A program made the translations under genes and the position numbers. Positions 2,921 through 11,463 of a DNA stretch of 64,000 nucleotides are shown piece after piece. How positions within the stretch are numbered: position 1 is the first letter of the stretch; each line of letters begins with the position of its first letter. The notes beneath the pieces were generated by a model. It was not told the origin of the DNA. It made no database searches and saw nothing but the letters and a program-made list of their open reading frames with translations. Source of the DNA: Candidatus Melainabacteria bacterium SSGW_16 (GTDB taxonomy: Bacteria; Cyanobacteriota; Vampirovibrionia; 2-02-FULL-35-15); contig DUDS01000015.1 of NCBI GenBank assembly GCA_004769085.1, positions 97,975 through 161,974 on the forward strand. The letters run 5' to 3'.

Positions 2921-5776
2921 TCAGGCAGTAACTTTTTCTTTAGATCTTACACTAGATATTTTTTTATTATGTGGCATTTTCCTTACTATTAGTACCCAGA
3001 ATGTAATTAAAAGTAAAATGATTAAAGAAGCTAAAGTTAAAGAAAGTCCAATAAAAAACAGTTTTGGATAATAATAAAATTCAATCGTGTAATCTCCCTC
3101 TTTAGGCAAATAAACTGCTCTTTGCACAAGATTTGCCTGATAATGATTTGACTCATTGTTGTTAATTGTTACTTTCCAGTTTTCATTTAAATTATGCCCA
3201 AGGATTAAATATCCCTTTTGATTTGTTTTAACATTTAATTTTATATTTTCAGCTTCATAGTTTAAAAATTTAATTTCGTATGCAGGCTTTACTTTATTCT
3301 CGGTCTTGCTATTTAACAAAGCGTCAGGCTCTTTAGTAAAAATCACCTCTTTCAAAGGATCAAACTCATTTTTATCAAGCTCAACAATTACATCTTTTGG
3401 TGAGATTATAACCCTGTAATCAGTTACAAAAAATGCTCTGGGAAGATATCGTTTGTTTTCATAGACTACTGCATCGCCAGAAAAAATTTTATTCACCTTT
3501 TCTGACTGTACAGTTAGAAAATTCGGAACTACAAAGTATTTAACATTTAATAAATCAAGTATTCTGCTGTGAAAATTTGAGATTGGGTAAGGAGTATTAA
3601 TATTTGAAAACAAATCAAAGATTTTTCCTGAGTAAAGTTTGTTATAGTCCTTCGTCTGTATATAAACAAACATATAATAAATATCTTTTGGAATAAAAGA
3701 ACTATAACCAGATGCATCTTCTATACCATAAGGCAAAAGGGTATTTGGTTCAGCAATATCAGGTTTTAAAAGAGCCCCTTCAACCTTATGACTACTGAAA
3801 GGTAAAATCCTAAAAGGTTCTTTTGATTTTTTTTGTTCATTTAATATAAACTGAAGCACTCCTTCTTCTGGTATAGGTTTGTAATCTTTCCTGTCAGACC
3901 AGGTAACAAAAAACGAAGAAAAGTACATTAAATCAATTGCTGAAATAATAATAATCAGATTAACTAAAGTCTTATACATATTCTGTAAATAAGGTTTAAC
4001 AAGATCCTGAAATACCTGAAAACCCATACCAGCTAAAAATGGGACTGAGTAACTAAATATCTGAAGAAATCTATAATGCTGCATTTCCTTAAATCCGGGC
4101 ATAAAAGATCTAAGCATGAAAAAAAGCGGTGTCCCTGTGCACATAAGTAAAGAAAATAAAATACACATAAAAAAGAAAATTGAGATTTTTTGTTTTCTAA
4201 ACAGAGAAACAAAACTAAAAAGAGAAATTATAAAAGGTAAAAAACCAAAATAAACATAATTTCTCATAAAACCAAGCTTATAATCTTCAAATTCTTTTGT
4301 TCTGTTTATAAGTCCTGCAAGAGGCCAGTCTGGAATACCCAGATAGTAAGGATGAAGCAAGCCAATAAATGCTTTTAAAGGCACAGATGTGGCTTTTACA
4401 AGATCTAAGGGATTTTCAGTCCTGTGTGAAATTTTAAACATATTTAAAAACGGAAGGATTGTAATACTTCCAATAAGCAGTCCAAATACAAATACAAACA
4501 AAAAAGAAAAAACATGCATCATAGCACTTTTTCTGTCACTGAACATACAAACCAGAAAACGAAAGAATGCAAAGAGAAAAAAGAAAATAGCTGAGTAATA
4601 AATATACTGAAAATGTCCTGAAAGAAAAATTAATCCAAGTAATACTGCTGAAGCTATAAGGTTTTTATTTATGAGCCTGTTTTGTTTCAGTGCCTTCTCA
4701 TAAAACAAAATTAAAAACGGCATGGCAGCACTGTTCATAATCATATGTTCATAGCTCATCCATGTAGCATTAAATGGCTGAAACATAAAAACAATGCCCG
4801 TAAGCACTGAAGAAGGATGATTCAAATTCCACTCCCTGCTTAAAAGATAAGCACCAAAGCCAGCGAATAAAATACACAGGAATGTCAGTATCTGATGTGC
4901 AGTAAAATGATCAAATAAAAAATATAAAATAAAATAAAAAGGATGGAAATAACCTACCTGAGGCTCAGCAATAAATTCTGCCCCGGAAAGAATATAGTTA
5001 TTCCAGAAAGGAAGCCTGCCACTCTTTATAGAATTTGAAAAATATTCCCGAAAAGGAGTAAACATCTGAATTAAATCGTTATTAAAGTGATTATGAGCTT
5101 TAGTGATTTTCGAAAAATCCTCACAACCAATTTTTAAGTTTTTAATCTGAATTGATGCAGCGCTTGTTTTACTTTTATTATTTGCACTAATTCTTATGTC
5201 AAACTGATTAATGTTATTAACTGAAGACTGTTTTGAAAGAAAATTATTTAAAGGAAATTGTGCTTTATACCAGTTTGTACTCCCGTCTTCTGAAGATACT
5301 GGTACAACAGCAACACCAGGAGTATACTCTGCGCCTGTAGCTCTGTTTATAAGAGAAGGACCAAAGCTAAAAGCAACACTACTATCATATTCAGGCTTAA
5401 AGTCAAAGCTTATGAAATAGTTTGAGTCTTTAAAATCTGTAAGTTTTTTAAGTGATTCACTGCTAAGATTAATATTTAAATCAATGCTTGTAAAAGTATC
5501 TTTTGATGTTGTCCATTTAAAAATTTCACCATTAATTGACTGAAACTGAGGACTTTTAATTCTGGAGAAATCGCCTTCCCAAAGGGTTAGCATCTTTATC
5601 TTCTTATCAACCATGTAATATCGCCACGGATACATACGCATATCGCGTATATCACATGGAGTATCTACTTTCCCTAAAAAAGAGGGAAATAGATAAATCA
5701 CACTAACTACAAAAAATATCAGTAGTGCATAATAATTTAGATTTTTAAATTTTTTAATCTCGGCAATCTTATTCAT
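2921..5776 (-). CDS. YfhO-like polytopic membrane protein (putative GT-C glycosyltransferase), paralog 1
   Basis: GRLPFWNN..LSG, GHFQY, LPRAFFV, W.VTIN, QAN..QRAVYLP..G.Y.IEFYYYP and a C-terminal TM helix; many hydrophobic segments. Confidence 0.8.
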   Translation of the reverse strand: MNKIAEIKKFKNLNYYALLIFFVVSVIYLFPSFLGKVDTPCDIRDMRMYPWRYYMVDKKIKMLTLWEGDFSRIKSPQFQSINGEIFKWTTSKDTFTSIDLNINLSSESLKKLTDFKDSNYFISFDFKPEYDSSVAFSFGPSLINRATGAEYTPGVAVVPVSSEDGSTNWYKAQFPLNNFLSKQSSVNNINQFDIRISANNKSKTSAASIQIKNLKIGCEDFSKITKAHNHFNNDLIQMFTPFREYFSNSIKSGRLPFWNNYILSGAEFIAEPQVGYFHPFYFILYFLFDHFTAHQILTFLCILFAGFGAYLLSREWNLNHPSSVLTGIVFMFQPFNATWMSYEHMIMNSAAMPFLILFYEKALKQNRLINKNLIASAVLLGLIFLSGHFQYIYYSAIFFFLFAFFRFLVCMFSDRKSAMMHVFSFLFVFVFGLLIGSITILPFLNMFKISHRTENPLDLVKATSVPLKAFIGLLHPYYLGIPDWPLAGLINRTKEFEDYKLGFMRNYVYFGFLPFIISLFSFVSLFRKQKISIFFFMCILFSLLMCTGTPLFFMLRSFMPGFKEMQHYRFLQIFSYSVPFLAGMGFQVFQDLVKPYLQNMYKTLVNLIIIISAIDLMYFSSFFVTWSDRKDYKPIPEEGVLQFILNEQKKSKEPFRILPFSSHKVEGALLKPDIAEPNTLLPYGIEDASGYSSFIPKDIYYMFVYIQTKDYNKLYSGKIFDLFSNINTPYPISNFHSRILDLLNVKYFVVPNFLTVQSEKVNKIFSGDAVVYENKRYLPRAFFVTDYRVIISPKDVIVELDKNEFDPLKEVIFTKEPDALLNSKTENKVKPAYEIKFLNYEAENIKLNVKTNQKGYLILGHNLNENWKVTINNNESNHYQANLVQRAVYLPKEGDYTIEFYYYPKLFFIGLSLTLASLIILLLITFWVLIVRKMPHNKKISSVRSKEKVTA

Positions 5777-8598
5777 ATTTTTGCTATTACCTTTAATTTA
5801 CCATTTTTGGACTCTTCAGAGGCACTCAATGATAATTTATTTTTTGAACTAAGCTTTATATAAAGAGCTAAAAGAAGAATAATTATTATTGCTAAAAGAC
5901 TAAATGAAGAGCCAATTAAAAACAATTTTGGATAATAATAAAATTCAATTTTATAATCTCCGACATCAGGAAGATACACAGTTCTCTGGACAAGATTTGC
6001 TTGATAATGCTTTGCCTCTTTATCATTAATCTTCACTTTCCAGTTAGTGTTTAAATTATTGCCAAGAACCAGAAATCCGGGGGAGAGAACCTTTGCATTT
6101 AAAATTATATTGTTTTGTTCGTATTTGAGAAACTTTATGTCATTCCCACGAAAGCGGGAATCCAGATCAGTATTGTTTGTAGCTTCCTCTGGATTCCCAG
6201 TCAAGCTGGGAATGACAGGAGGTTCCATCATCAAAATAACTTCTTTTCTTAAATTAAAATTATCACTTTCCAAAGCAAGAATTGTTCCTTTTGGAGATTC
6301 GATTACTTTGTATTCTGTGACAAAAAATGCTCTGGGAAAATAATTTTTATTTTCATAAATTGAACAATCACCACTAAAAACCTTTTCAGTGTCAGGCGAG
6401 TCCAATGTAAGAACATTTGGAACAAGAAAATACTTTACATTTAACAAATCAAGTATTTTACTCTTAAAATTAAATATTGGATATGGAATATTCGGATTTT
6501 TAAAAAAGTATGTGAGTTCTTTTGGATATAGTTTTGCCGGATCCAGACTCTGAATATAAACAAATAAATAATAAATATCCTTCGGAACAAAAGAGCTATA
6601 GCCGGAAACTTCTTCTAGTCCATAAGGAAGCAAGGTATTTGGCTGAGCTACATTAACTTTTAATGATGTTTCACCAACTTTATCTATAGCAAAAGGGAGT
6701 ACTCTGAAAAGGTCTTTTGATTTATTTTTCTGGTTAATCAGAAACTCAAGCGATCCTCCCTTAGGAACAGGCTTATAATCCTGTCTATCAGACCAGGTTA
6801 TAAAATAAGATGAGTAATAAATCAAATCTATTAATGAAATAATAAAAACCACAGAGAACAATATTGCCAATGTCTTCTTCTTGAAAAGAGATAACATGTC
6901 AAAAACAGCTTTTAGTCCAAATCCTGCAAGAAAAGGAACTGAATAACTAAAAAGCTGGAGAAATCTGAAATGCTGAAGTTGTTTAAACCCTGGAATAAAT
7001 TCCCTGAGGAAAAGGAAAATTGGTGAGCCTGTACAAATAATTAATGATATTAAAATGGTCAGATAAAAAAATAAAACTATTTTATATGACTTCAAGAATT
7101 TAATACTAAATAAAGAGACTATAAAAGGTAAAAATCCAAAATAAATATAATTATTAAAAAATCCAATCCTGTAATCAGGATTAATGTTTGGATTTCCAGC
7201 CTGAAATGCTTCAGGTAAGCCGCCGTAATATGGGTAAATTAATCCCAATAATCCCCATAGGGGGAATGAGGTTTCTTTTATATAACTCACAGAGTTTGCA
7301 ATTCTGTGAGAGTTCTGAAGAATTGGGAAAAACGGAATAATTACTGCCATCCCAATCATCAATCCAATAGAAGTCACAAAGAATATACCAAATAAATGTT
7401 TAAATATTCCAGCATCTTTTTCAAAGAAGCTAGATACTGCTTTAAAAGAAGCAAATAATAAAAAGAACACTGCACTGTAATAAACATACTGAAGATGCCC
7501 GGATATAAAAATTAATCCTAAAAGTAATGCAGAGAAGAGCAGGTATTTATTAATTAGTTTATTCTCAAGCAGATTTTTTTCATAAAAAAGGATTAAAAAC
7601 GGCAAAGTAGCACTATTCATTATCATGTGTTCATAACTAAACCATGTAACATTAAACGGCTGAAACATATAAACAAGAGCTGTAAGCAGCGAAGGATAAA
7701 ATCCTATATTCCAGAATCTTGCAAGTAAAAATGCTCCTATGCCACTTAGCAAAAAGCTCACAAACACCACAATTGCATGTGCTATAAAATGATCAAAAAC
7801 TAAATAGCTTAAAAAATAAAATGGGTGAAAATAGCCTACCTGTGGCTCTCCCAGGAATTCAGCACCTCCAAGTATGAAATTATTCCAGAAAGGAAGCCTG
7901 CCACTTTTTATAGAATTTGAAAAATATTCCCGAAAAGGAGTAAACATCTGAACAAGATCATTAATAAAAAAATTGTGTACCTTAACAGTGCCAGAATAAT
8001 CATCAAAACCAAAGTTTACATTTTTAAGCACTAATGAAGCTTCTTTTGAACCTTTATTTAAGGCTAATACCTGAATAAAAAATGAATCCAGATCATCTGG
8101 AGATTTAAGAGATTGTATAAAATTACTTAAATTAAAATAAGCCCTATGCCATGAACCATTCGCTGAAGAGAGTGGAGTTACTGCAACTCCAGGAGTAAAA
8201 GTGTAACCTGAAATTTTATTTATAAGTGACAATCCAAAATTAATTTTTTCACCTGAATCAGTTACAGGACTAAAATCAAATGTTATAAAATAATTTTGTT
8301 TCTTCATGACGTTAAAATTCTGAAGATATTTTTTATCAGTATTTAACTCAAGCAGAAGCTTGCTTGTATTATTTGGCTGAATTTTGAGAGTGTAAACACT
8401 GTTACTATCCTCTTTTGAGTGAGCATTCCACAAAATAACTGTCCGGACCTTTTTATCCACAGAATGATATCTCCAGGGATACATCAGGGAATCTCTTATA
8501 TCAATAGGAGTATCAATCTTCCCCAGGAAAAATGGGTGTAGATAAATAACTGCTATAAACAAAATAAAAAGAAACGCAATTTTTTCTAATGTTTTCAT
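5773..8598 (-). CDS. YfhO-like polytopic membrane protein, paralog 2, with an in-frame palindromic element
   Basis: Colinear with paralog 1 (GRLPFWNN, GHLQY, FPRAFFV, IEFYYYP); 4-bp overlap with paralog 1. Confidence 0.8.
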   Translation of the reverse strand: MKTLEKIAFLFILFIAVIYLHPFFLGKIDTPIDIRDSLMYPWRYHSVDKKVRTVILWNAHSKEDSNSVYTLKIQPNNTSKLLLELNTDKKYLQNFNVMKKQNYFITFDFSPVTDSGEKINFGLSLINKISGYTFTPGVAVTPLSSANGSWHRAYFNLSNFIQSLKSPDDLDSFFIQVLALNKGSKEASLVLKNVNFGFDDYSGTVKVHNFFINDLVQMFTPFREYFSNSIKSGRLPFWNNFILGGAEFLGEPQVGYFHPFYFLSYLVFDHFIAHAIVVFVSFLLSGIGAFLLARFWNIGFYPSLLTALVYMFQPFNVTWFSYEHMIMNSATLPFLILFYEKNLLENKLINKYLLFSALLLGLIFISGHLQYVYYSAVFFLLFASFKAVSSFFEKDAGIFKHLFGIFFVTSIGLMIGMAVIIPFFPILQNSHRIANSVSYIKETSFPLWGLLGLIYPYYGGLPEAFQAGNPNINPDYRIGFFNNYIYFGFLPFIVSLFSIKFLKSYKIVLFFYLTILISLIICTGSPIFLFLREFIPGFKQLQHFRFLQLFSYSVPFLAGFGLKAVFDMLSLFKKKTLAILFSVVFIISLIDLIYYSSYFITWSDRQDYKPVPKGGSLEFLINQKNKSKDLFRVLPFAIDKVGETSLKVNVAQPNTLLPYGLEEVSGYSSFVPKDIYYLFVYIQSLDPAKLYPKELTYFFKNPNIPYPIFNFKSKILDLLNVKYFLVPNVLTLDSPDTEKVFSGDCSIYENKNYFPRAFFVTEYKVIESPKGTILALESDNFNLRKEVILMMEPPVIPSLTGNPEEATNNTDLDSRFRGNDIKFLKYEQNNIILNAKVLSPGFLVLGNNLNTNWKVKINDKEAKHYQANLVQRTVYLPDVGDYKIEFYYYPKLFLIGSSFSLLAIIIILLLALYIKLSSKNKLSLSASEESKNGKLKVIAKI
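6138..6217. repeat. Inverted dimer of GTCATTCCC-type palindromic units (dRS3/RPE-like) inside YfhO paralog 2
   Basis: TGTCATTCCC-ACGAAAGC-GGGAATCCAG ... CTGGATTCCC-AGTCAAGCT-GGGAATGACA. 11-bp perfect terminal inverted repeat; the left arm matches ATTCCC-N8-GGGAAT. Confidence 0.9.
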
Positions 8599-8601
8599 TT
8601 G

Positions 8602-11463
8602 TCAGACACTAATCTTAATTTTATCCGGTTCTTTATAGGATTTTCCATCTTTATAAGCTATAGAAATTTTATTTTTATATTTTAAAATCAATGCTAAGCA
8701 AATCAAGATAAAAATTGCAAAACAACTTATTCCAAATCCTATGAAAAATAGGATCGGATAATAATAAAATTCAATGCTATATTCCCCTGCTTGAGGTATA
8801 TAAACAGCCCTTTGAATCAAATTAGCCTGAAAATGTTTATTCTCTTTATGATTAATTTTTACTTTCCAATTATTGTTTAAGTTGTGCCCAAGCACAAGAA
8901 AACCACTCATGTCTACAGTCACTTTTAAAGTTATGTTTTCTGGTTCGTATTTGAGAAACTCTATGTCATTGCGAGAAGAGGCAAAGCCTCGACGTGGCAA
9001 TCTCATAACGTTATCAGATTGCTCCGTCGCTACTCTCCTCGCAATGACAGGAGGCTCTACCATTAAAATCACTTCATTTCTAGGATTAAAACTCTCACTA
9101 TCAAGTTCTACGATAGTCTCTTTAGAAGATTCAATCACTTTAAAAGTAGGTACAAAAAAAGCTCTTGGCAGATAGTTTTTATTCTCATATATTACACAGT
9201 CTCCACTAAATACTTTTTCTGTATCATTAGATTTAAGGGTTACTATATTTGGTACCAAAAAATATCTAATGTTTAATAAATCAAGTATCTTACTCTTAAA
9301 ATTATAAATTGGATAAGGAATATTAGTATTGTTAAAAAGTTTAATTATTTCTTTTGTATAAAGATTATTTGGATCCTTGGTTTGAACATAAACAAATAAA
9401 GAATAAATATCTTTCGAAATTAATGAACTATAACCTGATGCTTCTTCTAGGTTATACGGCTGTAAGGTGTTGGGCTCTGCAACTTTATATCCTATGTTAT
9501 GTACAGTAAATGGTAAGATTCTAAATAGCTTACTAGATTTCTTTTGTTGCCTGACTAAAAACTCTAATGCACTATCTTTATACAGAGGTTTATATTTCTT
9601 TTTGTCTGACCAGGTAACAAAATATGAAGAATAATACATAAGGTCAATTGTTGAAACTAAAACAACAATACTAACAATTAGCACTTTTATATTTTCTTTA
9701 AGAAAAGATACCAAATTTAAAAAAACTTGAAAGCCAATACCAGCTAAAAAAGGAACACAAAAACTATAAACCTCCAGGAACCTGTAATGCTGCAGTTGTT
9801 TAAAACCAGGCACAAAGTCTTTAATCATAAAAAACAGAGGAGAACCTACTGAAATTAACACAGAGAAAGTAATCGTTAGAAAGAAAAAAATTGTCAGTTT
9901 ATTTTTAAAAAGTACTTTTATACTAAAGAGTGAAAGTAAAAAAGGTAAAAGTCCAAAATAGACATAGTTTTTAAAAAATCCCCAGTTGATTATGGATTCA
10001 TCAAAATTTGGCCAAGCAGGATATCCTTTGTAATAAGGGAATAAGAGCCCCAAAAATGCTTCTATAGCTATTGAGCTATCTTTTATAGAGGCTTCAGAAT
10101 AAGCTACTCTATGGGAGCCCTGGAACAAAGTTAAAAAAGGAACTAAAACTATTGCTCCAATCATAATCGCTATAGAAGAAATAAATAAGGTACTAAAAAA
10201 GTGTTTTAAATAGTTTCGTCTCCAGATAAAAGCATCTATTGAAAATCTAAAAGCAACAAATAAGAAAAAGAATATAACCGTATAATAAACAATCTGCAAG
10301 TGACCAGATATAAAAATAAGTCCAAGCAACAAAGCTGAGAGCAATAAATATTTATTTATAATTTTTGATTCTTTTATACTTTTTTCATAGGCAATCAGCA
10401 CAAAGGGTAAAGTAGCACTATTCATTAACATATGTTCATAACTAAACCAAGTCACATTAAAAGGATGGAACATATAAACAATGCTTGTTAGTAATGAAGC
10501 TCCAAAACTTAATCCCCAAAATCTTGCTAACAAATATGCACCAATACCACATAACAAAAAACTAACAAAAGTTATAATTGAGTGTGCAGTAAAATGATCA
10601 AAAATTAAGTAGCATAGAAAATAAAAAGGATGAAAAAAACCTACTTGAGGTTCAGCAATGAATTCACCTCCCGTTAGGGTATGGTTGTTCCAAAAAGGTA
10701 ATTTAGCCTTTTTAATAGATTCAGAAAAGTACTCTCTTGCTGGAGTAAACCATTGAATTAAATCATTTATAAAATAATTATGAACTTTAGGGATTTCTGA
10801 AAAATCTTCACATACAATTCGTAAATCTTTTAAATACAATGAGGCTGCCTTGTTCTTATTTTTATTCTTTGCAATAAGTTGAATATTATATAAATTTAAA
10901 TCTTTTACAGAAATCACATTATTTAAAGGAATATAAGCGGTATGCCATGAGGTTATTTCGTCATTTTTTTCAACATTAGCTGGGTATACAACTATACTAG
11001 GATTTAAATATCCATTAGTAACTTTATTAACCAGTAAAATACCAATTTCAAAAGAAGGTGAATCATAACGAATAGGTTTAAAATTAAAGCTGAAGTAATA
11101 ACTCAGATCTTTTAAATTGCCTTGTTTACTTAGAAGAAGTTCATCCAGAGCAGGTGTAAACAAGGAACTTACTGTGCTCAATGAAGGAACTTGGATCTTA
11201 AGAACCTGCTCATTTATTTCTCTATCATTAACAGTTTTATTTTTAAAGGAATTATGTTCCCATAAAACGATTTTTTTTACTTTTTTATCCACATTGTAAT
11301 ACTTCCAAGGGTACATTTGGATATTACGGATATCAATTGGTGTATCCACCATGCCAAAAAAAATTGGATGCATATAAATAGTTGTAACTAATAAAATAAA
11401 TATGAAAGCAATTAGTTTGTCATTTAGAAGATTGAATTTTTTAATAAACAGCAAACTAAACAT
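8602..11463 (-). CDS. YfhO-like polytopic membrane protein, paralog 3, with a different in-frame palindromic element
   Basis: Colinear with paralogs 1 and 2 (KLPFWNN, GHLQI, LPRAFFV, IEFYYYP). Confidence 0.8.
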   Translation of the reverse strand: MFSLLFIKKFNLLNDKLIAFIFILLVTTIYMHPIFFGMVDTPIDIRNIQMYPWKYYNVDKKVKKIVLWEHNSFKNKTVNDREINEQVLKIQVPSLSTVSSLFTPALDELLLSKQGNLKDLSYYFSFNFKPIRYDSPSFEIGILLVNKVTNGYLNPSIVVYPANVEKNDEITSWHTAYIPLNNVISVKDLNLYNIQLIAKNKNKNKAASLYLKDLRIVCEDFSEIPKVHNYFINDLIQWFTPAREYFSESIKKAKLPFWNNHTLTGGEFIAEPQVGFFHPFYFLCYLIFDHFTAHSIITFVSFLLCGIGAYLLARFWGLSFGASLLTSIVYMFHPFNVTWFSYEHMLMNSATLPFVLIAYEKSIKESKIINKYLLLSALLLGLIFISGHLQIVYYTVIFFFLFVAFRFSIDAFIWRRNYLKHFFSTLFISSIAIMIGAIVLVPFLTLFQGSHRVAYSEASIKDSSIAIEAFLGLLFPYYKGYPAWPNFDESIINWGFFKNYVYFGLLPFLLSLFSIKVLFKNKLTIFFFLTITFSVLISVGSPLFFMIKDFVPGFKQLQHYRFLEVYSFCVPFLAGIGFQVFLNLVSFLKENIKVLIVSIVVLVSTIDLMYYSSYFVTWSDKKKYKPLYKDSALEFLVRQQKKSSKLFRILPFTVHNIGYKVAEPNTLQPYNLEEASGYSSLISKDIYSLFVYVQTKDPNNLYTKEIIKLFNNTNIPYPIYNFKSKILDLLNIRYFLVPNIVTLKSNDTEKVFSGDCVIYENKNYLPRAFFVPTFKVIESSKETIVELDSESFNPRNEVILMVEPPVIARRVATEQSDNVMRLPRRGFASSRNDIEFLKYEPENITLKVTVDMSGFLVLGHNLNNNWKVKINHKENKHFQANLIQRAVYIPQAGEYSIEFYYYPILFFIGFGISCFAIFILICLALILKYKNKISIAYKDGKSYKEPDKIKISV
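8964..9049. repeat. Inverted dimer of GTCATTGCGAG-type palindromic units (REP/RPE-like) inside YfhO paralog 3
   Basis: 12-bp perfect terminal IR TGTCATTGCGAG (8964-8975) / CTCGCAATGACA (9038-9049); inner IR GCAATCT/AGATTGC; internal hairpin GAGGC-AAA-GCCTC. Confidence 0.9.

Follow-up and report, generated by a model that had tools for sequence, protein, structure and literature searches.

The 64,000-nt window analysed here (contig DUDS01000015.1, positions 97,975 to 161,974 of the forward strand, assembly GCA_004769085.1 of Candidatus Melainabacteria bacterium SSGW_16, hereafter G000) contains three tandem genes for YfhO-like membrane proteins (paralogs 1 to 3). Two different palindromic elements, referred to as type A and type B, are read in frame in the same loop of paralogs 2 and 3, respectively. 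These palindromes are probably gene-less head-to-head dimers of two related hairpin families tagged with TGTC or CGTC, which have filled a tolerant loop repeatedly. From its sequence, type A appears to belong to the NTS/dRS3 class, equivalent to CGTC-1/2, and type B would be a larger compound relative.

Two palindromic dimers in one protein loop

The type A dimer of paralog 2 (TGTCATTCCC...GGGAATGACA) is translated as VIPSLTGNPEEATNNTDLDSRFRGND, and the type B dimer of paralog 3 (TGTCATTGCGAG...CTCGCAATGACA) as VIARRVATEQSDNVMRLPRRGFASSRND. Both lie at one alignment position, flanked by EPP and I(K/E)FLKYE. Sequence and alignment thus agree with an earlier note on this DNA, which had described inverted dimers of 80 bp and 86 bp in frame at a homologous position of the two genes. 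Neither length is a multiple of 3; the aligned stretches span 81 and 87 nt, compared with 51 nt in paralog 1. On the coding strand, the junctions are identical for type A and type B (CCTCC/TGTCATT and AATGACA/TA, with the slash at the junction). Folding of the two dimers as DNA gave z values of -5.4 to -7.8, with 0 of 200 shuffles as good, and the loop of paralog 1 was without a hairpin (z +1.26; 3272-3328 folded). An Rfam search of positions 5700-9300 returned no match.

All four arms within the genes begin with TGTC. Type A arms have 8-bp stems that close a loop of either GAAA or 5 nt, and their tail is CCAG. Type B shares a GTCATT head and an AATC-type end with type A and has a longer arm, with a compound stem, a variable inner hairpin and a CTC tail, as well as a central AACGTT region; its genomic copies begin with CGTC or TGTC. 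The arm is the repeated unit of type B, as positions 9016 and 9049 are breakpoints in contigs from other organisms. The left arm of type A deviates at 2 of 28 positions, by our own count, from the published consensus of the 28-nt Neisseria Transformation Sequence (NTS; PMC11893778), so that the likeness to Neisseria dRS3 suggested earlier is real for type A, and arm 1 can be described as NTS/CGTC-1-like on the basis of its letters.

Dispersal of the two repeat families

The genome of G000 (2.25 Mb, 34% G+C; assembly completeness 94.85%) was compared with those of 11 relatives, giving a set of 12 genomes of the same family. In G000, GTCATTCCC was counted 27 times and GTCATTGCGAG 15 times, compared with about 0.4 for the latter by a composition estimate. 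Across the 12 genomes, the counts per genome ranged over 9-289 for the type B head, 0-48 for the type A arm and 0-1 for a reversed-pattern control (0 in G000). The recurrence of both palindromes in this genome and in relatives, implied by the earlier note, was evident from these counts, and the type A and type B palindromes are confirmed as members of dispersed repeat families. The 22 loci examined in G000 were mostly head-to-head dimers or their remnants, located between genes or just upstream of a start; the only two internal to a long open reading frame (ORF) were those in paralogs 2 and 3. Dimers of both types have inverted ends, and outward-headed dimers were also present in G000 and in relatives. 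Judging from sequence, the two families appear to form a continuum in which hybrid dimers exist.

Some further observations were made on these families. At C19:36000-36075 of G000 and near position 260 of a locus of relative G011 (L028), the heads of some arms (GTCATTCCGAG...) stand midway between the two types, and their partner ends resemble type B. A GC-rich insert of two kinds was nested in some type A and type B arms of G000 (C20:195900-196033, C40:16946-17064, C27:2789-2886, and C30:2000-2055). A "type C" head (TCACTGCGAGG) was considered as a family of its own, but was found only in the in-gene copy of relative G005 and in seven copies of G011, and probably represents a variant of type B. 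In four groundwater metagenome runs, the summed contig depth rose about 20-fold to several thousand-fold at 6063-6183 and 8967-9087; these spikes at both elements indicate that both arm types are very common across the organisms of these samples.

Association of the arms with small GIY-YIG genes

In the 12 family genomes, we obtained 26 small GIY-YIG matches, of which 21 were read (four were without a locus and one was a 49-residue fragment). In the subfamily characterized by YxYIL...GFT..Y...REKQIK, repeat arms were present at all ten genes, on both sides of eight and on one side of two. Arms were found at none of the 11 other small GIY-YIG genes, including the gene of G000 (on C37), and none of eight UvrC-like loci was bracketed by them. 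The guess that a GIY-YIG gene might be flanked by these repeats was thus right in related genomes. Units consisting of an arm, the gene and an inverted arm were 358-451 bp long, with the ends TGTCATT...AATGACA. In the alignment, the genes flanked by type A arms (L025 and L043) were consistently unlike those flanked by type B arms. Two unit genes were tested, and both matched the Pfam GIY-YIG family (PF01541). On sequence grounds, the arm-flanked subfamily appears to resemble Ssn, a GIY-YIG single-strand nuclease published in Nat Commun in 2025 (PMC11893778).

Both arm kinds of the dimer in paralog 2 recur, with the same polarity, in the type A units L025 and L043. As arm kinds and polarity are common to this dimer and the type A units, the dimers can be regarded as units without the gene. 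The window contains no nuclease or transposase, as the earlier note had stated correctly, and for the arm-flanked nuclease type this holds for the whole assembled genome. The copies of G000 are therefore probably relics or were moved in trans.

The gene on C37 was also examined with NCBIfam, in which only a sub-threshold match to a group I intron endonuclease was obtained. In the GIY-YIG search, a UvrC-like match of 567-651 aa (length of the open frame) was detected in 10 of the 11 relatives and not in G000, whose uvrC may have diverged too far for the search or may be located in the 5% missing from the assembly.

The loop as a recurrent landing site

In the AlphaFold2 model of paralog 2, internal values of the predicted local distance difference test (pLDDT) fell below 50 only at residues 798-803 and 805-816, that is, in the insert; the C-terminal tail was also low. 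In the model, strands 786-789 and 820-826 flank the insert; both belong to a beta-rich domain (residues ~600-890) that follows one membrane helix and precedes the last one. The insert loop is thus predicted to be disordered, in line with the surface loop that had been expected. By analogy with GT-C relatives, and from the basic C-terminal tail, the C-terminal domain is probably extracytoplasmic.

In the GTDB genomes searched, the gene family was found in 6 of the 11 same-family relatives, with one weak match elsewhere. The loop held type B dimers in G004, half of a type B dimer and a B-like variant in G005, heptad-repeat hairpins of variable copy number in G010, and ordinary sequence in G001, G002, and G006. 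The near-identical flanks of the G010 arrays suggest gene conversion among tandem copies.

Additional observations concern individual homologues. The loops of L003, L011, and L014 of G010 consist of arrays of inverted 7-nt repeats (GAGATCA.../...TCTCACC) whose copy number is unequal among the paralogs. Two paralogs of G004 (L012, on C42, at ~750-760 and 3520-3530) shift frame about ten codons past the type B insert, at the same place; the change in L012 may be genuine, or the consensus of a fragmented assembly may be wrong there. Three homologues each contain one in-frame TGA, namely L002 (G005:C40:15381-18122) and L011 and L014 (G010:C6).

The loop was further surveyed in 60 close metagenome homologues with a classifier applied to peptides rather than DNA. 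It was occupied by type B in 14, by type A in six, by kinds D, C, and E in two each and by heptad repeats in two, and was ordinary in 32. Since some of the loops scored as ordinary look like decayed repeats, 28 of 60 is a lower bound on occupancy. The targeted or recurrent hotspot considered in the earlier note fits these data, with repeat-derived loops of six kinds in at least 28 of the 60 homologues. Of 63 repeat-motif matches in the homologue proteins, 55 fell in the insert loop, and the other eight look like chance matches. Most occupants of types A, B, and D start one codon past a conserved Pro and end at ND-I-x-F.

In a tree calculated without the loop columns, 22 changes of loop state were counted, and the starred branches force at least nine changes between ordinary and occupied (by a quick method). 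Close sisters carried unlike occupants, as in P0008 (C), P0011 (B), and P0012 (A), and in P0028 (heptad) and P0038 (A). The nearest homologue of paralog 2 was P0026 (type A), followed by P0021 (ordinary); those nearest to paralog 3 were P0043 (type A) and P0031/P0033 (ordinary). In a contig of run X5, which comes from another study and has flanks ~93-96% identical, 89 other letters stand where the region around the type A insert, at 6112-6227, has 116. When metagenome contigs were scanned for the DNA of close relatives, only one distant and uninformative locus was obtained.

In-frame inserts in other genes of the lineage

The first 40 type B dimers listed in G008, G010, and G005 were taken as a sample, which is not a random one. 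Fourteen of them lay in open frames of at least 150 aa, ten with host residues on both sides. The hosts of these in-frame dimers look like valyl-tRNA synthetase (ValRS), MnmA, RecJ, an amidase, and others. G000 had an orthologue for nine of the ten hosts, and in eight of the nine there was a gap at the insert. The ValRS-like site was occupied in 2 of the 12 genomes, both of one genus. Among the 8 of 11 RecJ-like loci with a readable loop, those of G010 and G004 had type B dimers and that of G002 a type A dimer, each of the three at its own junction. This shows that these elements reshape proteins in Melainabacteria, housekeeping enzymes included, much as the Rickettsia elements do. A dedicated loop-swapping device, as envisaged in the earlier note, was not shown: the same dimers stand in frame in many unrelated housekeeping genes of the relatives. 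The RecJ-like loop of L112 (G004:C51) contained, besides its type B dimer, a run of short repeats of the GACAATA/GACAGCA type, which is read as DNRPGTIDNRQQTADNREQ.

Host genes

Searches of Pfam and NCBIfam assigned no family to the three paralogs, and the YfhO model PF09586 gave no match up to E = 10. PF09586 was found in distant homologues that the C-terminal part of a paralog had retrieved. One such family member, P0062, matches the YfhO Pfam model at E 4e-31 and was aligned by BLASTP with residues 208-561 (E 9e-16) and 586-918 (E 5e-26) of paralog 2; this pairwise homology spans the membrane part and the C-terminal domain. The AlphaFold2 model of paralog 2 (71 sequences) had a mean pLDDT of 89.7 and a predicted template modelling score of 0.88. 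Its best PDB matches were the GT-C glycosyltransferases AftA, AftD, PglB, STT3, and ArnT (E 4e-5 to 3e-3). Unlike YfhO and the GT-C enzymes, paralog 2 has an extra N-terminal beta domain (residues ~27-200) in the model. The paralogs can be described as GT-C-fold membrane proteins and distant YfhO homologues; the label YfhO given earlier stood in the BLASTP comparison with the PF09586 member and failed in the Pfam and NCBIfam searches, and is supported only indirectly. In the alignment, paralog 1 shares 50-53% identity with the other two. The features of the locus are listed in Table 1.

Table 1. Paralogous genes, palindromic dimers and their parts (positions in the window)
Feature	Positions	Strand	Description	Basis
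Paralog 1	2921-5776	minus	951 aa, ordinary loop	ORF list, translation, alignment
Ordinary loop of paralog 1	3275-3325	minus	17 codons, DALLNSKTENKVKPAYE; same homologous position as the inserts	
Paralog 2	5773-8598	minus	941 aa, host of type A dimer	ORF, alignment, AlphaFold2 model
Type A head-to-head dimer	6138-6217	strandless	80 bp; in frame, residues ~794-820 of paralog 2	
Type A arm 1	6138-6166	plus	TGTC tag, 8-bp stem ATTCCCAC/GCGGGAAT with one mismatch, GAAA loop, CCAG tail	
Type A arm 2, inverted	6188-6217	minus	TGTC tag, stem ATTCCCAG/CTGGGAAT, 5-nt loop	
Paralog 3	8602-11463	minus	953 aa, host of type B dimer	ORF, translation, alignment
Type B head-to-head dimer	8964-9049	strandless	86 bp; in frame in paralog 3	
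Type B left arm	8964-9003			
Type B central region	9004-9015		ATAACGTTAT region	
Type B right arm	9016-9049			

Origin of the inserts

In the explanation that we favour, the full-length form of the elements would be the one seen in relatives, in which an arm and an inverted arm enclose a small, single-domain and Ssn-like GIY-YIG gene, and the dimers would relate to these units as miniature inverted-repeat transposable elements relate to insertion sequences. The nuclease would move the elements. Dimers would enter genes, persisting where frame and fold tolerate them, as do Rickettsia palindromic elements, and the inserts would be translated as part of the protein. Within this gene family, the loop would have been filled many times by different repeat families; resident elements may attract breaks and replacement, or the ends of the elements may erode flanking host residues. 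Paralogs 2 and 3 most likely gained their occupants separately, the order of events being a reconstruction. As the nearest relatives of both include ordinary loops (P0021; P0031 and P0033), separate gains are at least as likely as a replacement of one type by the other through shared termini, which the earlier note had proposed and which was not shown.

Several observations weigh against gene-less dimers that entered a tolerant loop repeatedly. The only small GIY-YIG gene of G000, that on C37, belongs to an unflanked subfamily and has no arms nearby; a tblastn search of the G000 assembly with all 21 GIY-YIG proteins found only this locus and, with the assembly 94.85% complete, no arm-flanked gene. 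For Ssn, cleavage of single-stranded DNA and an effect on transformation are shown, and nuclease-driven mobility is not, in the accessible part of that report (PMC11893778). The four in-gene arms fail the published strict SRM pattern, which had six matches genome-wide, three of them other type A arms, and type B falls outside the stem and loop sizes of CGTC-1 to CGTC-4. No consistent target-site duplication or target consensus was found when the flanks of ~60 copies were inspected by eye. Other regions of the proteins are equally variable in length, yet never contain repeats. Moreover, the identical junctions of types A and B and the common boundaries of the occupants are not predicted by random independent insertion.

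The last point bears on a single old insertion that was spread among paralogs and strains by recombination, its interior being exchanged later at the GTCAT heads, likely through nuclease cuts at both heads and repair from another copy. We regard such a history as possible, though doubtful. It would account for the identical junctions in paralogs 2 and 3, where 23 of the 24 nt after the element are also identical, and for the common start and end positions of A, B, and D occupants in distant homologues. The kind of occupant tends to track the genome rather than the orthologue group, with all copies of G004 being type B and all those of G010 heptad repeats; the G004 copies are mosaic, sharing the spacer and one arm and differing in the other arm, and the contig from another study likewise shows 89 letters replacing 116 between flanks ~93-96% identical. 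However, the ordinary loops among the nearest relatives of paralogs 2 and 3 have endings of the ancestral type, and paralog 1, also ordinary, lies within a clade that holds occupied members (support 100/99). Occupants with other junctions that retain ancestral loop residues occur in P0007, P0024, P0012, and P0005, types A and B entered the RecJ-like gene at different junctions, and only 7 nt at each end are common to the two types. A long conversion tract between paralogs 2 and 3 was not found either, identity being 0.65-0.72 near the loop and 0.63 overall. A stronger form, in which the GTCAT heads would act as exchange points where an Ssn-type nuclease cuts the resident element at both heads, the dimer of the other family is copied in and the host loop is eroded to its structural boundaries, seems rather unlikely. 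If true, head exchange would let repeats swap an exposed loop of surface-glycan enzymes rapidly, and it would explain both the identical A/B junctions and the unlike occupants of near-identical sisters.

Retention of the hairpin or the peptide for a useful function, as a structure in mRNA or DNA or as a varying exposed loop of a surface-glycan enzyme, appears improbable. The stems of the dimers are intact in both genes, P0002 and P0026, proteins with 78% identity, have conserved arm peptides and a differing spacer, and an occupancy of at least 28 of 60 is far above the 2 of 12 at the ValRS-like site. These points are opposed by occupants that are unrelated in sequence (A, B, D, heptad, and others), by the 32 of 60 loops that are ordinary, by the loop of paralog 1 without a hairpin, by the lack of an Rfam match and by the many unrelated genes that hold the same elements; further, a 2013 survey, in its accessible text, spoke against intragenic REPs being under functional constraint (PMC3733652). 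It is very improbable that the elements are REPINs moved by RAYT, a tyrosine transposase of the IS200/IS605 type, which the earlier note had offered as an alternative mover. As in REPINs, a hairpin with a conserved four-nucleotide tag is present as an inverted doublet, but this tag is CGTC/TGTC and not GTAG, and the arms flank GIY-YIG genes in relatives. The RAYT family PF01797 had no match in G000, the control search being positive in 6 of 14 known genomes, and no dedicated transposase for CGTC repeats was found in the 2013 survey, as far as its accessible text goes (PMC3733652). An assembly artefact that joined repeats into the genes can hardly be entertained. Both elements are so abundant in metagenomes, as their depth spikes indicate, that they can mislead assemblers. 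Nevertheless, the Logan contigs of two runs, possibly from the source sample and made with a second assembler, cross both elements with 0 differences, which speaks against the misassembly that the earlier note had considered; the pieces obtained from two other runs (X3 and X5) were all short and of low depth, and are uninformative on absence. In addition, the reading frames remain open, type A orthologues stand at the same place in other assemblies (P0026 and P0043), and type B occupants are found in the same loop of G004 and G005.

Relation to known systems

The closest counterparts of these elements are the CGTC-1 to CGTC-4 REPs of Di Nocera, De Gregorio and Rocco (2013), which include Neisseria dRS3 and Rickettsia RPE-6 and RPE-4 (PMC3733652; the statements on this survey refer to the accessible part of its text). 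CGTC repeats are defined there by a stem of 8-9 bp, and type A resembles them in its CGTC/TGTC tag, a stem starting with AT, a loop of 4-5 nt and a CCA-type tail. They are likewise mostly head-to-head dimers, and intragenic dimers encoding 20-30 residues were described, including those in repair and tRNA-synthetase genes; different REPs even occupy about the same recB site in two Xanthomonas species. Type B departs from them: its arm is compound and longer, the inner hairpin varies, the tail is CTC, and the sizes are outside those of the four families. The five phyla of the survey exclude the present lineage, no associated enzyme was found, and six kinds of occupants in the loop of one gene family have no match in that part of the survey (PMC3733652).

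The NTS/Ssn system is similar in two respects, as far as the accessible part of its description goes: the type A arm comes close to the NTS consensus, and the arms of the relatives bracket a single-domain GIY-YIG gene of ~86-101 aa, in the order repeat, gene, repeat, as at ssnA (PMC11893778). The G000 assembly differs in holding repeats without such a gene, and its in-gene arms fail the strict search pattern. The terms in-frame, intragenic, open reading and within genes are absent from the main text of that paper (PMC11893778).

The inserts resemble Rickettsia palindromic elements in lying in frame in genes that stay open, in having orthologues with ordinary loops or, for the housekeeping genes, empty sites in G000, and in occupying a loop predicted to be disordered. 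RPE-1-like palindromic repeats were reportedly described by Ogata and colleagues in 2000 as selfish elements, in frame in protein-coding genes at surface-exposed places. They differ in belonging to other sequence families, save for the RPE-6/RPE-4 link (PMC3733652, accessible part), and here a linked nuclease gene is visible in relatives. The REPIN-RAYT system, reportedly described by Bertels and Rainey in 2011, is comparable in that its replicating unit is an inverted doublet of a tagged hairpin, and in that hairpins of this kind border an enzyme gene present in single copy. The tag of that system is GTAG and its enzyme a tyrosine transposase, whereas no RAYT was found here.

Literature searches on in-frame palindromic elements with GIY-YIG, repeats of Melainabacteria and Rickettsia elements found nothing relevant among the matches listed. 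Intragenic CGTC dimers have been known since 2013 and Ssn since 2025. Elements of this kind are already known, and the locus illustrates a known phenomenon vividly rather than revealing a new mechanism. Its contribution is twofold, namely a family (type B) with a nuclease group of its own and a landing site that is unusually busy and well sampled. The spread of CGTC-tagged repeats has been a question since 2013, to which the Ssn work of 2025 contributed an enzyme, not a mechanism of movement. The gene family is a natural test bed in this respect, with six kinds of occupants in one short loop, close sisters that differ, two nuclease groups each with one arm type, and adjacent paralogs with common A/B junctions. 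For annotation, peptides of the forms VIARS...PRND or VIPS...SRFRGND mark a repeat insert and not a domain.

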